In this document: positions 9,641 to 36,526 of the stretch, one piece after another
How the letters are laid out: each line of letters opens with the position of its first letter
Numbering within the stretch: the stretch's first letter is position 1
Virus record (IMG/VR): IMGVR_UViG_2531839130_000013
Source: a virus
Taxonomy: Duplodnaviria > Heunggongvirae > Uroviricota > Caudoviricetes
DNA: 45,266 bases
Direction: 5' to 3' (one strand)
Notes under the pieces: model-generated
The model's input: the letters and a program-made list of their open reading frames with translations, nothing else
What the model was told of the DNA's origin: nothing
The model's database searches: none
Translations under genes and position numbers: made by a program

Positions 9641-10402
9641 ATGGAGACCGTTTTTGACGCACTGAAAGCGATGGGAAAAGCTACGTCGGTAGAACTGGCT
9701 GAGCGACTTGATATCAGTCGTGAAGAAGTGCTGAACGAACTATGGGAACTGAAAAAGGCTGGTTTCGTTGATAAAAGCGCGTACACCTGGCGTGTGGCTG
9801 ATAACAACGTTCAGCAGGAACAGCCAGCGCCAGAAGAACAGCCGGAAGAAACCTCCACGGCGACAGTAGCGAAAATCTCAGAGTGCGATTTAACCGCGAC
9901 GATTGAACAACGCGGACCACAAACGGCTGATGAGCTGGCTACATTGTTTGGTACCACATCACGCAAAGTGGCTTCAACGCTGGCAATGGCAATCAGCAAA
10001 GGCCGTCTGATTCGTGCTAATCAGGACGGTAAATTTCGTTACTGTATGCCGGGCGATAATTTACCAGCAGAGCCGAAAGCAGCATCGGTAGCGGAAACTG
10101 ATGGTAAAGCCTTTCCTCAGCCTGCATGCGTTGCGTTACCAGTACAGGAAGCTGCAACACAGGAAGATATTAAAACAGAGACTGTGGCGGACATTGTGCA
10201 GTCGCTGCCATCGTTTACTGAAACGCGAGCGGATGACCTGGTTTTACCATCGCTGCATATGGCAAACCGCGAACTGCGTCGGGCGAAAAATCATGTCCAG
10301 AAGTGGGAGCGAGTCTGCGCCGCGCTGCGGGAGCTGAACAAGCACCGGGATATTGTACGACAGATTACTGATTCTTCCCGCCATGTTGCATCGGAAAAGT
10401 GA
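9641..10402 (+). CDS. Hypothetical protein with N-terminal winged-helix-like segment (253 aa)
   Basis: Start [12 protein letters not shown]... with GGGAGG SD; N-terminal [28 protein letters not shown] looks like a wHTH; acidic/Q-rich linker. Confidence 0.5.
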
Positions 10403-30188: not shown

Positions 30189-30962
30189 GTGATGTCCACA
30201 CCGAATCCACTGGAGAAAACGAAAGGCGCAGGGACAACATTCTGGATGTATACCGGGATGGGAGATCCGTTTGCGTCTGCATTGTCAGACACGGACTGGC
30301 TGCGACTGGCAATGGTGAAGGATTTGCAGCCGGGCGAAATGACGGCTGATGCGGAAGACGACACGTATCTTGATGATGAGAATGCGGACTGGAAGAGCAC
30401 ATCTCAGGGCCAGAAAACCGCTGGCGATACGTCTGCCACACTGGCATGGCGTCCGGGCGACAGCGGACAGAAAAAACTGGTTGAGTTGTTTTATTCCGGC
30501 GAGGTTTGTGCGTTTCGCATTCTGTACCCCAACGGCACAGTTGATGTTTTTCGTGGCTGGTTGAGTTCGCTGGGCAAAGCGGTGACGTCAACGGAAGTGA
30601 TGACCCGGACCATCAAAATCACCGGGATTGGGCGTCCGTACCTGGCGGAAGAGTGTCAGGAGGTGGTCAGCGTCACCGGTGTGACGGTGACACCGATGGC
30701 GGTGACACTGCATCCTGGTGAAACGTCCAAACTGACGTTTGTGCTTGTACCGGAAAACGCCTCGGATAAAACGCTCACGGTGTTTTCCACGGATCCGCAG
30801 ACAGCAACGGTAAGCCTGAGCGGCCTTGTGGCTACGGTATCTGCCCGCCAGGAAGGGACGGTCAGTATTGTGGGTATGAGCGGTGATGGCCGTACGGGGC
30901 AGGTGGTCAAGGTGACCGTGGCCCCTGCTGAGGAGAAGAGTACCGGACGTACCCGGGGATAA
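30189..30962 (+). CDS. V: Major tail protein V-like with C-terminal Ig-like domain
   Basis: KGAGTT.W.Y.G.GDP...LSD.DW.RLA.VKDL.PGE.TA...DD.YLDDE.ADW matches lambda gpV. Confidence 0.9.
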   Translation: MMSTPNPLEKTKGAGTTFWMYTGMGDPFASALSDTDWLRLAMVKDLQPGEMTADAEDDTYLDDENADWKSTSQGQKTAGDTSATLAWRPGDSGQKKLVELFYSGEVCAFRILYPNGTVDVFRGWLSSLGKAVTSTEVMTRTIKITGIGRPYLAEECQEVVSVTGVTVTPMAVTLHPGETSKLTFVLVPENASDKTLTVFSTDPQTATVSLSGLVATVSARQEGTVSIVGMSGDGRTGQVVKVTVAPAEEKSTGRTRG

Positions 30963-30983
30963 CAGGGCCATGTTTATCATCAG

Positions 30984-31005
30984 CCCCGGTTCGCCGGGGT
31001 TTTTT
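30984..31005 (+). terminator. Intrinsic terminator-like hairpin after V
   Basis: ccccgg-ttcg-ccgggg followed by TTTTTT. Confidence 0.5.
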
Positions 31006-31022
31006 ATTCGGGGAGAAGAGAA

Positions 31023-31412
31023 ATGTTTCTGAAACAGGATACGTTTAATTACGGCAATCAGTCGGTGGTACTGAATGAACTGTCTGGTCTGCAGCGTGTG
31101 GAATACCTGGCTTATGCCCGTGAACGCGCGGCGCAGTTTGATGAGGCTTCTGCAGGAATGGAAGAAGGGGCCCGCCAGATTGCTTTTATGGAAATGGGGA
31201 TGGACATCAACGCCTGGCTGGTTTCCCGTTCGCTGTGGAATGCCGACCAGTCTCAGAATGTGGCGGCGCTTTTTTCCTCCGTGCGCGTGACATGGTCCTG
31301 GGATGCGCTGGGGATGGCGGCGGAAAGCATTCTGGCGCTGAGCGGTATGGCACTGACAGTGGCGACAGAGGGGGATGACGTGAAGGAGGTGCTGACGCCG
31401 GAAAAGTCCTGA
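31023..31412 (+). CDS. G: Tail assembly chaperone G-like
   Basis: MFLKQDTFNYG....V.L.ELS.LQR.E.LA matches the lambda gpG N-terminus; followed by a -1 frame ORF (T). Confidence 0.8.
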   Translation: MFLKQDTFNYGNQSVVLNELSGLQRVEYLAYARERAAQFDEASAGMEEGARQIAFMEMGMDINAWLVSRSLWNADQSQNVAALFSSVRVTWSWDALGMAAESILALSGMALTVATEGDDVKEVLTPEKS

Positions 31413-31735
31413 CGCAGGAAATGCAGTTTGTCATGCGGCTGGCCCGGGAGTTCCGGCGGGGCGACTGGCGGCGAATGCTGTCAGAAATGTCAGCCACAGA
31501 ACTGGGAGAGTGGGGGGATTATTTCCGGCGGCAGAGTTTCAGTGATGTGTGGCTGGATGCGCAATTTGCCACACTGAAAACGCTGATTGTGCAGATGGTT
31601 TCCGGAAAAACCGTGGCGGCGGATATGTTCAGCCTGTTGCCTTCAGAGACAGAAGCGCCCGTCCGGACAGATGAAGAGCTGATGTTTCTGGGGGAAGGTA
31701 TCGCGGGAGGAATAAGAATTGAGCCAGATAGCTGA
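31379..31735 (+). CDS. T: T-like segment of the G-T tail assembly chaperone, reached by -1 frameshift from G
   Basis: Open -1 frame from 31379 overlapping the last 11 codons of G; product ...EFRRGDWRRMLSEMSATE... resembles lambda gpT; A-rich slippery-like GGAAAAG at 31400-31406. Confidence 0.65.
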   Translation, partial: REGGADAGKVLTQEMQFVMRLAREFRRGDWRRMLSEMSATELGEWGDYFRRQSFSDVWLDAQFATLKTLIVQMVSGKTVAADMFSLLPSETEAPVRTDEELMFLGEGIAGGIRIEPDS

Positions 31736-34700
31736 CCTTGTTATTGATTTAAGTGTTGATACGGCTGATTTTAAGGAACAGCTTCCGCGTATTAAAGCGC
31801 AACTCAATGGTACCGCCAGCGAAGCGGCGCGCGCAGAAGCGCGGGTCAGACAGTTTGAAGCGAGTCAGAAGCAGGCGGCGACTACCGCGGTGAAACAGAC
31901 TCAGGCACTGGCGGGGAATGCGCAGGCGCATGTTTCGTTGTCAGAGGATGTGGAACAGACCCGTCAGCGACTTGATGCCCTGAACCGGAAAATGCGTGAG
32001 GAGCAGGCGCAGGCGGCGGCACTGGCTGCTGCTCAGGATAAAGCCGCTGCTGCATTTTATCGTCAGATTGACAGTGTGAAACAGGCGGGGGCCGGACTGC
32101 AGGAGCTGCAGCGTATTCAGCAGCAGGTCCGTCAGGCCAGAAACAATGGTGGCATCGCGCAGCAGGATTATCTGGCGTTAATCTCCGAAGTGACGGCAAA
32201 AACCCGCGTGCTGGCTCAGGCTGAAGAATCCGCCACCCGCCAGAAGACGGCCTTTATCCGGCGGCTGAAGGAGCAGGTATCCGCTCAAAATCTTTCATCC
32301 ACGGAGCTGCTCAGGGCAAAAGCCGCGCAGCTGGGTGTCAGTAGTGCGGCTGAGGTGTATATCAGCAAAATGGAAAAAGCCGGGAAGGTCACGCATTCGC
32401 TGGGGCTGAAAAGTGCGGCGGCCCGCCAGGAGATAGGTGTTCTGATAGGTGAAATTGCCCGGGGTAATTTCGGTGCGCTTCGTGGCTCCGGGATCACCCT
32501 GGCTAACCGTGCCGGATGGATTGACGCGCTGATGTCCCCGAAAGGCATGGCTGTCGGCGGGGTTATCGGTGGACTCACTGCTGCTGTTGTCGGGCTGGGA
32601 AAGGCCTGGTATGACGGTCAGAAGGAGGGGGAGGTGTTTAATCGTCAGCTGGCGTTGACAGGGCATTATGCGGGCATCACTACCGGACAGCTGTGGACTC
32701 TCAGTCGCGCCATTTCCGGGAATGGTATCACGCAACATGCTGCAGCCAGTGCGCTGGCTCAGGCGGTTGGCAGCGGTGCATTTCGTGGAGGTGATATCGC
32801 CATGGTGGCGAAAGCTGCCGCGCAAATGGAAAGTTCAGTGGGGCAGTCTGTCAGCGACACCATCAGTCAGTTTAAGCGACTGAAGGATGACCCGGTAAAT
32901 GCAGCCAGGACGCTGGATAATGAACTGCATTTCCTGACTGCCACCCAGCTTGAACAAATCCGTGTTCTCGGGGAACAGGGGCGTGCCAGTGATGCTGCCC
33001 GGATCGCCATGTCAGCGCTGGCAGAGGAAACCGGTAAACGCACATCTGATATTGATAATAATCTCAATGCGCTGGGCAGTACGCTGCAAACCTTATCTGA
33101 CTGGTGGAAGCAGTTCTGGGATGCCGCCATGAATATCGGGCGTAATGATTCCCTTGATGCGCAGATTGCGGCGCTGCAGGAAAAAATTCAGCGTGCGAAA
33201 AAATCGCCCTGGACAAATGCATCCACCACAGTGGAATACGACCAGCAGCGCCTTGATGAACTTCAGGAGAAAAAGCGCCAGAAAGATTTACAGGATGCAA
33301 AAGAGCAGGCAGAGCGGAATTATCAGGAGCAACAGAAACGCCGGAATGCTGAAAATGCCGCGCTGAACCGGATGAACGAAACGGAAGCGGCACGACATCA
33401 GCGTGAAATTGCGCGTATTAATGCCATGCAGTACGCAGATCAGTCGGTCAGGGACGCAGCGATACAGCGTGAAAATAAACGTCACAAAAAAGCCATTAAG
33501 AAAGAAACGCCTGCCACCCGTAATGATGAGGCCACCCGGTTATTACTGCAGTACAGCCAGCAACAGGCGCAGGTGGAGGGGCAGATCGCCGCCGCCAGAC
33601 AGTCCGCGGGACTGACCACGAAAAAAATGACGGAAGCGCATAAGCAGCTTCTGGCCCTGCAGCAGCGTATCAGTGATTTAGCCGGTAAAAAGCTGACGGC
33701 AGATGAAAAAAGCGTGCTGGCGCATAAGGATGAACTGATTCAGGCGCTGACGCTGCTGGATGCAAAACAGCAGGAGCTGCAGAAGCAGACGGCGCTGAAT
33801 GACCTTAAGAAAAAATCCATTCAGCTTGCCAGCCAGCTGGCGGAAGAGGAGCGGGTTCTGCGTCAGCAACATGACCTGGATATCGCCACGACAGGGATGG
33901 GGGATAAACAGCGTCAGCGATACCAGGCACAGTTCAGTCTGCAACAAAAATATCAGCAGCAGCGGGAACAGTTGGAGCGTGACAGTAAGCGGAAAGGAAC
34001 ATATGGCACAGATGAATACCGGAATGCTGAGCAGACGCTGACAGACAGTCTTAACCGGCAACTGAACGAAAACAGACGCTACTGGCAGGAGCAGGAACTG
34101 ATGCAGGCAGACTGGAAAAACGGTGCCATGCGGGCGTTTCAGAATTTTACGGCAGATGCGGATAATGCGGCAGGAACTGCTGAGCAGATGTTTACAGCGG
34201 CATTTAACAGTGCAGGTAATGCACTGGCGACGTTCTGCACGACAGGTAAACTGAATTTCAAATCCTTTACCGCCTCGCTTCTTTCCGACCTGGCAAAAAT
34301 CATGGCGCAGATGGCCATTATGCAGGCGGTGAAGGGGATTGGTTCGGCGTTTGGCTGGGGGAGCGCATCCGCTGCCAGTGTGACGCCCAATGCGGATGGC
34401 GGTGTTTATCAGTCTGCGGATTTGAGCCGTTACAGTGGCTCAGTGGTTAACCGCCCGACGTTTTTTGCCTTTGCAAAAGGCGCGGGGGTGATGGGAGAAG
34501 CGGGGCCTGAAGCCATTCTGCCACTGCGTCGTGGTGCCGACGGTAAGCTGGGTGTTGTGGCGGATATTGGTGGTTCAGGCATGGTGATGTTTGCCCCGCA
34601 GTACAACATCGCGATCAATAACGACGGTACGAACGGGCAGATAGGTCCGGCTGCCCTGAAGGTGGTTTATGACCTCGGGAAAAAAGCTGCAGCGGACTTT

Positions 34701-34751
34701 ATGCAACAGCAGTCCCGTGATGGCGGTCAGTTAAGCGGAGTGTATCGGTAA
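31719..34751 (+). CDS. H: Tail tape measure protein (lambda H-like)
   Basis: 1010 aa, coiled-coil-rich, position between G/T and M. Confidence 0.9.
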   Translation: MSQIADLVIDLSVDTADFKEQLPRIKAQLNGTASEAARAEARVRQFEASQKQAATTAVKQTQALAGNAQAHVSLSEDVEQTRQRLDALNRKMREEQAQAAALAAAQDKAAAAFYRQIDSVKQAGAGLQELQRIQQQVRQARNNGGIAQQDYLALISEVTAKTRVLAQAEESATRQKTAFIRRLKEQVSAQNLSSTELLRAKAAQLGVSSAAEVYISKMEKAGKVTHSLGLKSAAARQEIGVLIGEIARGNFGALRGSGITLANRAGWIDALMSPKGMAVGGVIGGLTAAVVGLGKAWYDGQKEGEVFNRQLALTGHYAGITTGQLWTLSRAISGNGITQHAAASALAQAVGSGAFRGGDIAMVAKAAAQMESSVGQSVSDTISQFKRLKDDPVNAARTLDNELHFLTATQLEQIRVLGEQGRASDAARIAMSALAEETGKRTSDIDNNLNALGSTLQTLSDWWKQFWDAAMNIGRNDSLDAQIAALQEKIQRAKKSPWTNASTTVEYDQQRLDELQEKKRQKDLQDAKEQAERNYQEQQKRRNAENAALNRMNETEAARHQREIARINAMQYADQSVRDAAIQRENKRHKKAIKKETPATRNDEATRLLLQYSQQQAQVEGQIAAARQSAGLTTKKMTEAHKQLLALQQRISDLAGKKLTADEKSVLAHKDELIQALTLLDAKQQELQKQTALNDLKKKSIQLASQLAEEERVLRQQHDLDIATTGMGDKQRQRYQAQFSLQQKYQQQREQLERDSKRKGTYGTDEYRNAEQTLTDSLNRQLNENRRYWQEQELMQADWKNGAMRAFQNFTADADNAAGTAEQMFTAAFNSAGNALATFCTTGKLNFKSFTASLLSDLAKIMAQMAIMQAVKGIGSAFGWGSASAASVTPNADGGVYQSADLSRYSGSVVNRPTFFAFAKGAGVMGEAGPEAILPLRRGADGKLGVVADIGGSGMVMFAPQYNIAINNDGTNGQIGPAALKVVYDLGKKAAADFMQQQSRDGGQLSGVYR

Positions 34752-35080
34752 TGGAGACGTTTCACTGGAAAATTCGTCCTGATATGACAGTTGCATCGGA
34801 ACCGAAGGTGTTGACGGTAAAGCTGGGGGATGGCTATGAACAGCGGCGACCGGCAGGACTGAATAATTTATTGTCTGTTTACAGTGTGACTATCCGGATA
34901 CGTAAAGGAGAACATCAGTCACTGGAGGATTTTCTGGCGCGGCATGGCGGTGTCAGGGCGTTTCAGTGGGTGCCGCCTTATGGCTGGAAACCAGTCATGG
35001 TGGTTTGTCGTAAATGGTCGACACGCGTTGGGGCGTTATGGGTGACTGTAACGGCAGATTTTGAGCAGGTGGTGAACTGA
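34751..35080 (+). CDS. M: Minor tail protein M-like
   Basis: 109 aa; position and size as lambda gpM. Confidence 0.85.
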   Translation: METFHWKIRPDMTVASEPKVLTVKLGDGYEQRRPAGLNNLLSVYSVTIRIRKGEHQSLEDFLARHGGVRAFQWVPPYGWKPVMVVCRKWSTRVGALWVTVTADFEQVVN

Positions 35081-35778
35081 TGCAGGATATACAGCAGGAA
35101 ACACTGAATGAATGCACCCGTGCGGAGCAGTCGGCCAGCGTGGTGCTCTGGGAAATCGATCTGACAGAGGTCGGTGGAGAACGTTATTTTTTCTGTAATG
35201 AGCAGAACGAAAAAGGTGAGCCGGTCACCTGGCAGGGGCGACAGTATCAGGCGTATCCCATTCAGGGGAGTGGTTTTGAACTGAATGGCAAGGGCAGTGC
35301 TGCCCGTCCGACACTGACGGTTTCTAACCTGCACGGCATGGTCACCGGGATGGCGGAAGACCTGCAGAGTCTGGTCGGCGGAACGGTGGTCAGGCGTAAG
35401 GTTTACGCCCGTTTTCTGGATGCGGTGAACTTCGTCAACGGAAACAGTGACGCCGATCCGGAGCAGGAGGTGATCAGCCGCTGGCGCATTGAGCAGTGCA
35501 GCGAACTGAGCGCGGTGAGTGCCTCTTTTGTACTGTCCACGCCGACGGAAACGGACGGCGCTGTTTTTCCGGGACGTATCATGCTGGCCAACACCTGCAC
35601 CTGGACCTATCGCGGTGATGAGTGCGGTTATCACGGTCCGGCTGTCGCGGATGAATATGACCAGCCGACGTCCGATATCACGAAGGATAAATGCAGCAAA
35701 TGCCTGAGTGGCTGTAAGTTTCGCAATAACGTCTGCAACTTTGGCGGCTTCCTTTCCATTAACAAACTTTCGCAGTAA
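35080..35778 (+). CDS. L: Minor tail protein L-like
   Basis: Near-identical to lambda gpL as recalled (MQDIQQETLNECTRAEQSASVVLWEIDLTEVGGERYFFCNEQNEKGEPVTWQGRQYQ...). Confidence 0.9.
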   Translation: MQDIQQETLNECTRAEQSASVVLWEIDLTEVGGERYFFCNEQNEKGEPVTWQGRQYQAYPIQGSGFELNGKGSAARPTLTVSNLHGMVTGMAEDLQSLVGGTVVRRKVYARFLDAVNFVNGNSDADPEQEVISRWRIEQCSELSAVSASFVLSTPTETDGAVFPGRIMLANTCTWTYRGDECGYHGPAVADEYDQPTSDITKDKCSKCLSGCKFRNNVCNFGGFLSINKLSQ

Positions 35779-35782
35779 TCCC

Positions 35783-36526
35783 ATGACAGAGACAGAATCA
35801 GCGATTCTGGCGCACGCCCGGCGATGTGCGCCAGCGGAGTCGTGCGGCTTCGTGGTGAGAACGCCGGAGGGGGAAAGATATTTTCCCTGCGTGAATATCT
35901 CCGGTGAGCCGGAGGATTATTTCCGGATGGCTCCGGAGGACTGGCTGCAGGCAGAAATGCAGGGTGAGATTGTGGCGCTGGTCCACAGTCATCCCGGTGG
36001 TCTGCCCTGGCTGAGTGATGCTGATCGGCGGCTGCAGGTGCAGAGTGATTTGCCGTGGTGGCTGGTCTGCCGGGGGGCGATTCATAAGTTCCGCTGTGTG
36101 CCGCATCTCACCGGGCGGCGCTTTGAGCACGGGTCGACGGACTGTTACACGCTGTTCCGGGATGCTTATCATCTGGCGGGGATTGAGATGCCGGATTTTC
36201 ATCGCGGGTATGACTGGTGGCGTAACGGTCAGAATCTCTATCTTGACAATATGGAGGCAACGGGTTTTTACCGTGTCGCACTGACAGAGGCGCAGCCGGG
36301 CGATGTGCTGCTGTGCTGTTTTGGTTCATCGGTGCCGAATCATGCCGCCATTTACTGTGGTGATGGCGAGCTGCTGCACCATATTCCTGAACAACTGAGC
36401 AAACGAGAGAGGTATACCGACAAATGGCAGCGACGCACACACTCCCTCTGGCGTCACCGGGCATGGCGCGCATCTGCCTTTACGGGGATTTGCAACGATT
36501 TGGCCGCCGCATCGACCTTCGTGTGA
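35783..36526 (+). CDS. K: Tail assembly protein K-like (JAMM/MPN plus NlpC/P60-like domains)
   Basis: HSHP JAMM motif and downstream Cys/His peptidase-like motifs; start set at MTETESAIL after the L stop. Confidence 0.85.
   Translation: MTETESAILAHARRCAPAESCGFVVRTPEGERYFPCVNISGEPEDYFRMAPEDWLQAEMQGEIVALVHSHPGGLPWLSDADRRLQVQSDLPWWLVCRGAIHKFRCVPHLTGRRFEHGSTDCYTLFRDAYHLAGIEMPDFHRGYDWWRNGQNLYLDNMEATGFYRVALTEAQPGDVLLCCFGSSVPNHAAIYCGDGELLHHIPEQLSKRERYTDKWQRRTHSLWRHRAWRASAFTGICNDLAAASTFV

Follow-up and report, generated by a model that had tools for sequence, protein, structure and literature searches.

A probable lambda-type −1 frameshift at G_GAA_AAG joins tail genes G and T of an Escherichia coli prophage

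The −1 frameshift between tail genes G and T of phage lambda was reportedly described by Levin, Hendrix and Casjens in 1993 and by Xu, Hendrix and Duda in 2004, 2013 and 2014. PMC5009743 treats it as experimentally established by Levin et al. (1993). In lambda, T functions as the C-terminal portion of a gpGT fusion, at a ratio of about 1 GT per 30 G (PMC5009743), and this G:GT ratio is tuned by s2U34 on tRNA-Lys, a modification whose TUS pathway also thiolates tRNA-Glu and tRNA-Gln (PMC3296357). Among tetramers, A_AAG is by far the most shift-prone in E. coli, reaching 5.6% with a strong pseudoknot, and tetramer motifs without a stimulator barely exceed background (PMC4066793). Sites of the NNA_AAG class are in natural use in Bacillus subtilis cdd and in IS1222 (PMC5009743). 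In a reconstituted E. coli system, the heptamer G GAA AAG served as the 'unfavourable, less slippery' partner of G GGA AAG and, unlike the latter, yielded mainly the zero-frame product (PMC6924986); among the matches listed in a full-text search of the frameshifting literature for G GAA AAG or GGAAAAG, this was the only relevant paper.

Here we analysed a 45,266-nucleotide stretch of viral DNA (IMG/VR record IMGVR_UViG_2531839130_000013), referred to throughout as the window. This E. coli lambdoid prophage shares about 87% identity with mEp460-type phages in its tail module, and its G–T region is present at 98.8% identity in two complete E. coli genomes, where RefSeq names the copy of G 'phage tail assembly chaperone G'. 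The upstream tail tube gene V defines the synteny: two open reading frames, G and the T frame, lie between the major tail protein and tape measure genes in the lambda-type arrangement, an M homologue follows the tape measure gene, and both G and T are homologous to their lambda counterparts (Table 1). A terminator-like hairpin separates V from G, and the same feature is annotated at the equivalent position in mEp460 and N15; presumably, G-T-H is transcribed less than V. Further downstream, a 268-amino-acid open reading frame on the minus strand (34978-35784) runs antisense to the L gene (35080..35778) and is probably a spurious shadow of this GC-rich gene.

Table 1. Positions of the tail-gene and frameshift-site features in the window.
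Feature	Position	Strand	Remarks
Major tail tube protein of the lambda gpV type, carrying a C-terminal Ig-like domain	30189..30962	+	Pfam Phage_TTP_12 1e-63, Big_2 7.6e-11
Intrinsic-terminator-like hairpin and T run between V and G	30982..31009	+	8-bp stem with 6 GC pairs, then TTTTATT
Gene G, tail assembly chaperone, zero-frame product of 129 aa	31023..31412	+	Pfam PF06894 Phage_TAC_2 4.9e-35
SD-like AAGGAGGT inside G, candidate upstream stimulator	31383..31390	+	Ends 9-10 nt before the heptamer
Slippery heptamer G_GAA_AAG	31400..31406	+	Sole Z_ZZN motif in the overlap; tRNA-Glu in the P site, tRNA-Lys in the A site
T segment, −1 frame after the predicted slip, 109 codons plus stop	31406..31735	+	Pfam PF06223 Phage_tail_T 4.3e-12
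G stop codon TGA, one codon past the heptamer	31410..31412	+	
ATG in the T frame, RefSeq-style T start	31421..31423	+	9 nt past the G stop
Tape measure protein, lambda gpH type, overlapping the T end	31719..34751	+	Pfam TMP_2 3.9e-46, Tape_meas_lam_C 2.1e-24

The second reading frame lies in the −1 frame and overlaps the end of G. After a TGA at 31376-31378 it stays open from 31379 until its stop at 31733-31735, giving a G/T overlap of 34 nt that covers the last 11 codons of G including its stop. A sequence-only reading of this DNA had placed the opening of the −1 frame at 31379, over those 11 codons up to the stop at 31410-31412, and all of these coordinates hold. We enumerated every zero-frame codon of the overlap (GAC GTG AAG GAG GTG CTG ACG CCG GAA AAG TCC TGA) to see where the tRNA in the A site might re-pair one base back. 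The only Z_ZZN-type motif was the A_AAG within GGAAAAG, the heptamer that had also been singled out earlier as the sole A-rich slippery candidate. The heptamer is not rare in itself, with 12 copies observed in the window against 7.4 expected and hence no enrichment, so whatever significance it has must derive from the frame in which it is read, where it lies and how well relatives conserve it.

The heptamer had further been called non-canonical. This is correct in that its first three bases are G, G and A, which breaks the X_XXY_YYZ rule. It does contain A_AAG in the NNA_AAG configuration, with a zero-frame AAG after an A (GAA AAG at 31401-31406). All NNA_AAG hexamers were reportedly tested by Licznar et al. 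in 2003 (EMBO J). The label fails if it is taken to mean unusual, as GGAAAAG proved to be the majority form among related loci (28 of 37, below) and is already annotated in N15, phi80 and LLS. We describe G_GAA_AAG as near-canonical rather than as a canonical member of the class: with a P-site tRNA that can re-pair and a conserved first base, it would behave as a heptamer containing a single G.U pair.

To place the site in its family, we gathered 170 loci with a gene for a lambda-type T, drawing on GenBank phages, on IMG/VR and on a single genome for each GTDB species, and anchored them on the last Z_ZZN motif within the G/T overlap. These reduced to 78 distinct contexts and then to 37 representatives with <85% identity, drawn from Enterobacterales including Escherichia, Salmonella, Citrobacter, Enterobacter, Klebsiella, Kluyvera, Kosakonia and Phytobacter, as well as Providencia, Proteus, Morganella, Sodalis, Pantoea, Edwardsiella and others. 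A shift motif was present within the overlap in all related loci examined. In every usable locus a G_GNA_AAR heptamer sat at a fixed distance from a conserved ..F-x-x-x-LAREF.. motif, even where the overlap was only 16 nt. GGAAAAG accounted for 28 of the 37 representatives, followed by GGGAAAG (3) and GGCAAAA (2), with AGAAAAG, GGTAAAG, GGGAAAA and AAAAAAC found once each. In this comparison, GGAAAAG is the family norm, and the textbook GGGAAAG of lambda a minority form.

Conservation across the heptamer columns was G35, G36, A30, A37, A37, A37 and G33 out of 37, leaving three As invariant in every lineage. The first base is a third codon position in G. It is nevertheless G in 35 of 37 lineages (1.7 bits), after codons for Pro, Ala, Leu, Val, Thr, Met and Lys that all end in G, whereas third positions upstream of the heptamer carry about 0 bits. 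Such conservation at a synonymous site reflects selection acting on the nucleotides of the slip site themselves. Columns of little information coincide with G-frame third positions upstream and with −1-frame third positions from the heptamer onwards, with a single exception to the latter pattern (column 14, 1.16 bits). As these wobble columns show, protein-level selection switches frame at the heptamer.

Two observations from the census concern subsets of loci. In nine of them (L107, L109, L113-L115, L122, L096, L097 and L124, from Providencia, Proteus, Ewingella and Kluyvera), the G stop TAG follows the heptamer directly, as GGAAAAG TAG, GGCAAAA TAG or GGGAAAA TAG, which leaves the A-site Lys codon as G's final sense codon. 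A second set (L144-L150 and L152-L156) consists of short contigs, several of low coverage, whose 118-nt heptamer context is identical to that of lambda and whose T protein matches the query at 38%, the same as lambda. Their assemblies are labelled Neobacillus, Oceanobacillus, Pseudomonas, Kitasatospora, Chromatium, Shewanella, Leeuwenhoekiella, Paenibacillus, Enterococcus, Tardiphaga and others, and they are most likely lambda DNA contamination.

The window very probably makes a G–T fusion by the usual lambda-type programmed −1 frameshift at G_GAA_AAG. The earlier suggestion that the frameshift still operates here gains strong support from the comparative data. According to the mechanism that we propose, a small fraction of the ribosomes translating G would slip back by 1 nt on the heptamer. 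Peptidyl-tRNA-Glu would move from GAA to GGA, pairing as G:C, G.U and A:U, while tRNA-Lys would move from AAG to its cognate AAA. Translation would then resume with GTC at 31406 in the −1 frame, pass the G stop and end at 31733-31735, producing a 237-amino-acid G–T fusion (...LTPEK/VLTQEMQFVMRLAREF...) beside abundant G. Joining 31023..31406 to 31406..31735 predicts exactly this length, with the junction ...LTPEK/VLTQEMQF..., and the predicted protein aligned as a single HSP across the junction with phi80 gpG-T (36%, 2e-41), with LLS and with lambda GT (1e-35), the last of which we built by joining at the annotated lambda heptamer. Homology with the lambda proteins suggests that G, together with the G portion of GT, coats the tape measure protein and that the T part recruits the tail tube protein. 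A frameshift rate of a few percent is expected, and even a weak site would suffice because lambda needs only about 1 GT per 30 G. The poor slipping of G GAA AAG in vitro, by contrast, counts against a frameshift at this site, as do the near-background rates of tetramers that lack a stimulator (PMC4066793) and the failure of our searches (below) to reveal a significant or conserved structure downstream.

How the ribosome would slip is a separate matter. The sequence-only reading had held that GGAAAAG would require a one-tRNA slip or a different mechanism. The pure form of the former is that only tRNA-Lys re-pairs (AAG to AAA), as in the NNA_AAG hexamer mechanism, with the P-site tRNA-Glu merely releasing the third-position A; the protein product would be unchanged. 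This class of slip is documented (PMC5009743), and some lineages carry GGTAAAG or GGCAAAA, in which P-site re-pairing would be poorer still. Yet there is no such requirement, as tRNA-Glu can re-pair with GGA, and the first heptamer base, synonymous and following seven different amino acids, is conserved while nearby third positions are free to vary. This conservation is expected only if pairing of the anticodon base C36 with that G matters, which suggests that P-site re-pairing contributes. On the strength of this pattern we favour a tandem slip with one wobble pair, yielding the same protein, and regard a slip of tRNA-Lys alone as an unlikely alternative.

Another possibility is that T is made by its own initiation, or by termination and reinitiation, at the ATG at 31421, so that no fusion is required. 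That ATG is in frame and close to the G stop, and in both the 98.8%-identical prophage and mEp460-type prophages PGAP gives 'tail assembly protein T' a CDS of its own. However, an ATG occurs at the equivalent codon in 3 of the 37 lineages, where CTG or CGN is usual, and 14 of the 37 have no ATG, GTG or TTG within the first 14 T-frame codons; independent initiation was therefore rejected as a general mechanism. The T-frame residues before the ATG (V/A-L-x-x-E) are also conserved, although the Glu is invariant only in an alignment of six T sequences (window, mEp460, Fels-1, Gifsy-1, Gifsy-2 and lambda) and is shared by most, not all, of the 37 representatives. The only SD-like bases ahead of this ATG are AGGA, 1 nt away, and lambda T functions as the C-terminal segment of gpGT (PMC5009743). 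Use of a start codon proper to T had been named beforehand as one finding that would refute a frameshift; with the ATG present in so few lineages, it is probably not the functional route to T, and we consider this explanation very improbable, although some reinitiation after the G stop may take place in the window lineage.

The frameshift reading also has to be set against an explanation at the level of transcription, in which an extra base is added by slippage on the A run. To our knowledge, a run of four As is far shorter than known transcriptional slippage sites, and we rejected this candidate on that ground. That the overlap is a relic, with T unexpressed and no frameshift, or with the extra base arising from such slippage, is scarcely credible: the heptamer does break the X_XXY_YYZ rule and is poorly slippery in vitro (PMC6924986), but T remains intact, and in dozens of genera its −1 frame is kept by purifying selection.

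Returning to a programmed frameshift at G_GAA_AAG, we looked for elements that might stimulate it. Downstream of the heptamer, the single-sequence fold of 31400-31490 was no better than that of shuffled sequences (z = −0.38). RNAalifold on 23 diverse relatives gave −1.46 kcal/mol with only a 4-bp helix and neither covariation nor compensatory pairs. A search for Rfam frameshift elements returned none, the sole match being a sub-threshold hit of the V–G terminator hairpin to RsmY. A downstream stimulatory structure was thus rejected on the z-score and the lack of covariation in the 23 relatives, and the region shows no stem-loop or pseudoknot of the dnaX type.

Upstream, the window carries AAGGAGGT, a perfect 8-mer that is the only copy on either strand of the 45-kb sequence. 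Its predicted duplex with the anti-SD (−13.0 kcal/mol) falls in the top 0.2% of the G open reading frame background. On the plus strand of the window, six sites in all reach −12 kcal/mol or lower; of the five besides AAGGAGGT, at least two sit just upstream of a start codon, and no start codon was found at ribosome-binding-site spacing after AAGGAGGT. Another of the six, GAGGGGGAGGTG (32625-32636, −12.6 kcal/mol), lies within the tape measure gene and is not followed at such spacing by any obvious start codon. The GGAGG of AAGGAGGT stops 10 nt short of the heptamer, a distance that falls inside the range of 6-17 nt used for SD stimulators of the dnaX type and matches the spacing of the dnaX construct AGGGAG-10 nt-A_AAA_AAG (PMC6924986). 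AAGGAGGT is accordingly a plausible lineage-specific candidate enhancer of a weak heptamer; by analogy with the equivalent element in dnaX, the chances that it raises the slip rate in the window lineage seem to us even at best. It could also be a by-product of the codons AAG GAG GTG (Lys-Glu-Val), with a probability of about 0.07-0.15 that codon choice for these residues yields AAGGAGGT by chance (AAG and GAG frequencies from PMC3296357).

An SD-like element 6-17 nt upstream was absent in most lineages, N15, phi80 and lambda among them. We rejected a family-wide SD stimulator, as strong SD-like sequences are confined to the lineage of the window, to a Pantoea-type clade with GGTAAAG and to a small number of others. 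A Mann–Whitney comparison of SD strength gave p = 2e-6, a value inflated by relatedness to which we gave no weight. The four Pantoea-type loci (L116, L117, L120 and L126) have the least re-pairable heptamer, with Val GTA in the P site, and all four keep GGGGAGGA or AGGGAGGA ending 9-10 nt upstream, with the rare codons GGG and GAG; in this clade the element may act as a compensating SD stimulator.

The G–T frameshift site of the window is real, is not unusual and represents an already-known feature that refines a well-understood system. Its practical value is mostly one of annotation. RefSeq/PGAP and several GenBank phage records show T free-standing from a non-conserved ATG and omit the G–T fusion. 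Such free-standing T records were found in L001 (1922-2236), L007 (896-1225), L002 (896-1225) and L167 (696-1025), corresponding to window 31421-31735. About 1,295 of 5,426 complete E. coli genomes contain a relative of the G–T region at 60-80% identity, so the annotation gap is widespread, and where T is annotated alone GT will be missing from many proteomes. It is a mild curiosity that a naturally prevalent heptamer is the one that biochemists used as a poorly slipping control (PMC6924986). Both tRNAs that would slip here, tRNA-Glu and tRNA-Lys, carry s2U34. Tentatively, and with considerable doubt, we suggest that this control heptamer is the preferred G–T site of enterobacterial lambdoid phages, read by two s2U34 tRNAs, with a dnaX-like SD exactly 10 nt upstream that may tune the low basal rate in some lineages, that of the window included. 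In that case, anti-SD pairing and host tRNA thiolation would weigh more heavily on the G:GT ratio, and through it on tail assembly, than they do in lambda. This raises the question of the in vivo level of shifting at G_GAA_AAG and of whether G:GT is set by SD-like sequences or by tRNA thiolation.

Compared with known systems, the window shares with E. coli dnaX a slip on Lys AAG and an internal SD-like sequence about 10 nt upstream. Unlike the window, in which no downstream structure was found, dnaX combines A_AAA_AAG with an essential downstream stem-loop and shifts at about 50%. The tRNA-Lys slip from AAG to AAA after NNA is also the one used at B. subtilis cdd (A_CGA_AAG) and IS1222 (G_CGA_AAG), where efficiency depends on stimulators (PMC5009743, PMC4066793); unlike at these sites, the P-site tRNA in the window can re-pair (G:C, G.U, A:U) and the first base is conserved.

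Closer relatives are the G–T regions of Gifsy-1, Gifsy-2, Fels-1, mEp460 and the cdtI prophage, with DNA 67-75% identical and T-frame protein 54-81% identical to those of the window. The 3′ end of G is the same or nearly so in this group (ACG CCG GAA AAG TCC TGA), and Gifsy-1 and Gifsy-2, which share the identical ACGCCGGAAAAGTCCTGA, are annotated as G+T frameshift hybrids. Their upstream SD-like sequences are weaker than that of the window (GAGG or AGGA only), and Fels-1, Gifsy-1 and Gifsy-2, unlike the window, have no ATG after the G stop. N15 genes 14/15 (NC_001901), phi80 gpG-T (FN582354) and LLS genes 11/12 (PQ299149) use the same GGAAAAG in the same frame and position. In the N15 record, the misc_feature at 10027..10033, 'slippery sequence for -1 translational frameshift', reads GGAAAAG; the phi80 record has a joined gpG-T CDS and a slippery-sequence feature with the same letters; and LLS is annotated with a 'minus-one programmed translational frameshift site GGAAAAG'. 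Compared with the window, these three phages have G and T proteins of only about 35% identity, their G stop lies 15 nt further downstream and, unlike the window, they have no SD-like element 6-17 nt upstream.

Lambda itself differs from the window in several respects. The heptamers differ by one base (G_GAA_AAG versus G_GGA_AAG), so that the P-site codon is Glu rather than Gly and re-pairing in the window includes a central G.U; the G stop follows the heptamer after 3 nt rather than 18 nt; the window T has no counterpart of the C-terminal duplication of lambda T (118 versus 159 codons); and the strong upstream SD-like element is found in the window lineage and not in lambda. Neither phage has a conserved downstream structure. 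Gene order V-G-T-H and the Pfam families are nonetheless the same in both. As the sequence-only reading had proposed for GGGAAAG, the shift site of lambda falls on the codon that is homologous by position; the two share the junction ..K/V.., the distance to LAREF/LAREM and identical K-V-x-x-x-E-L-x-F spacing.
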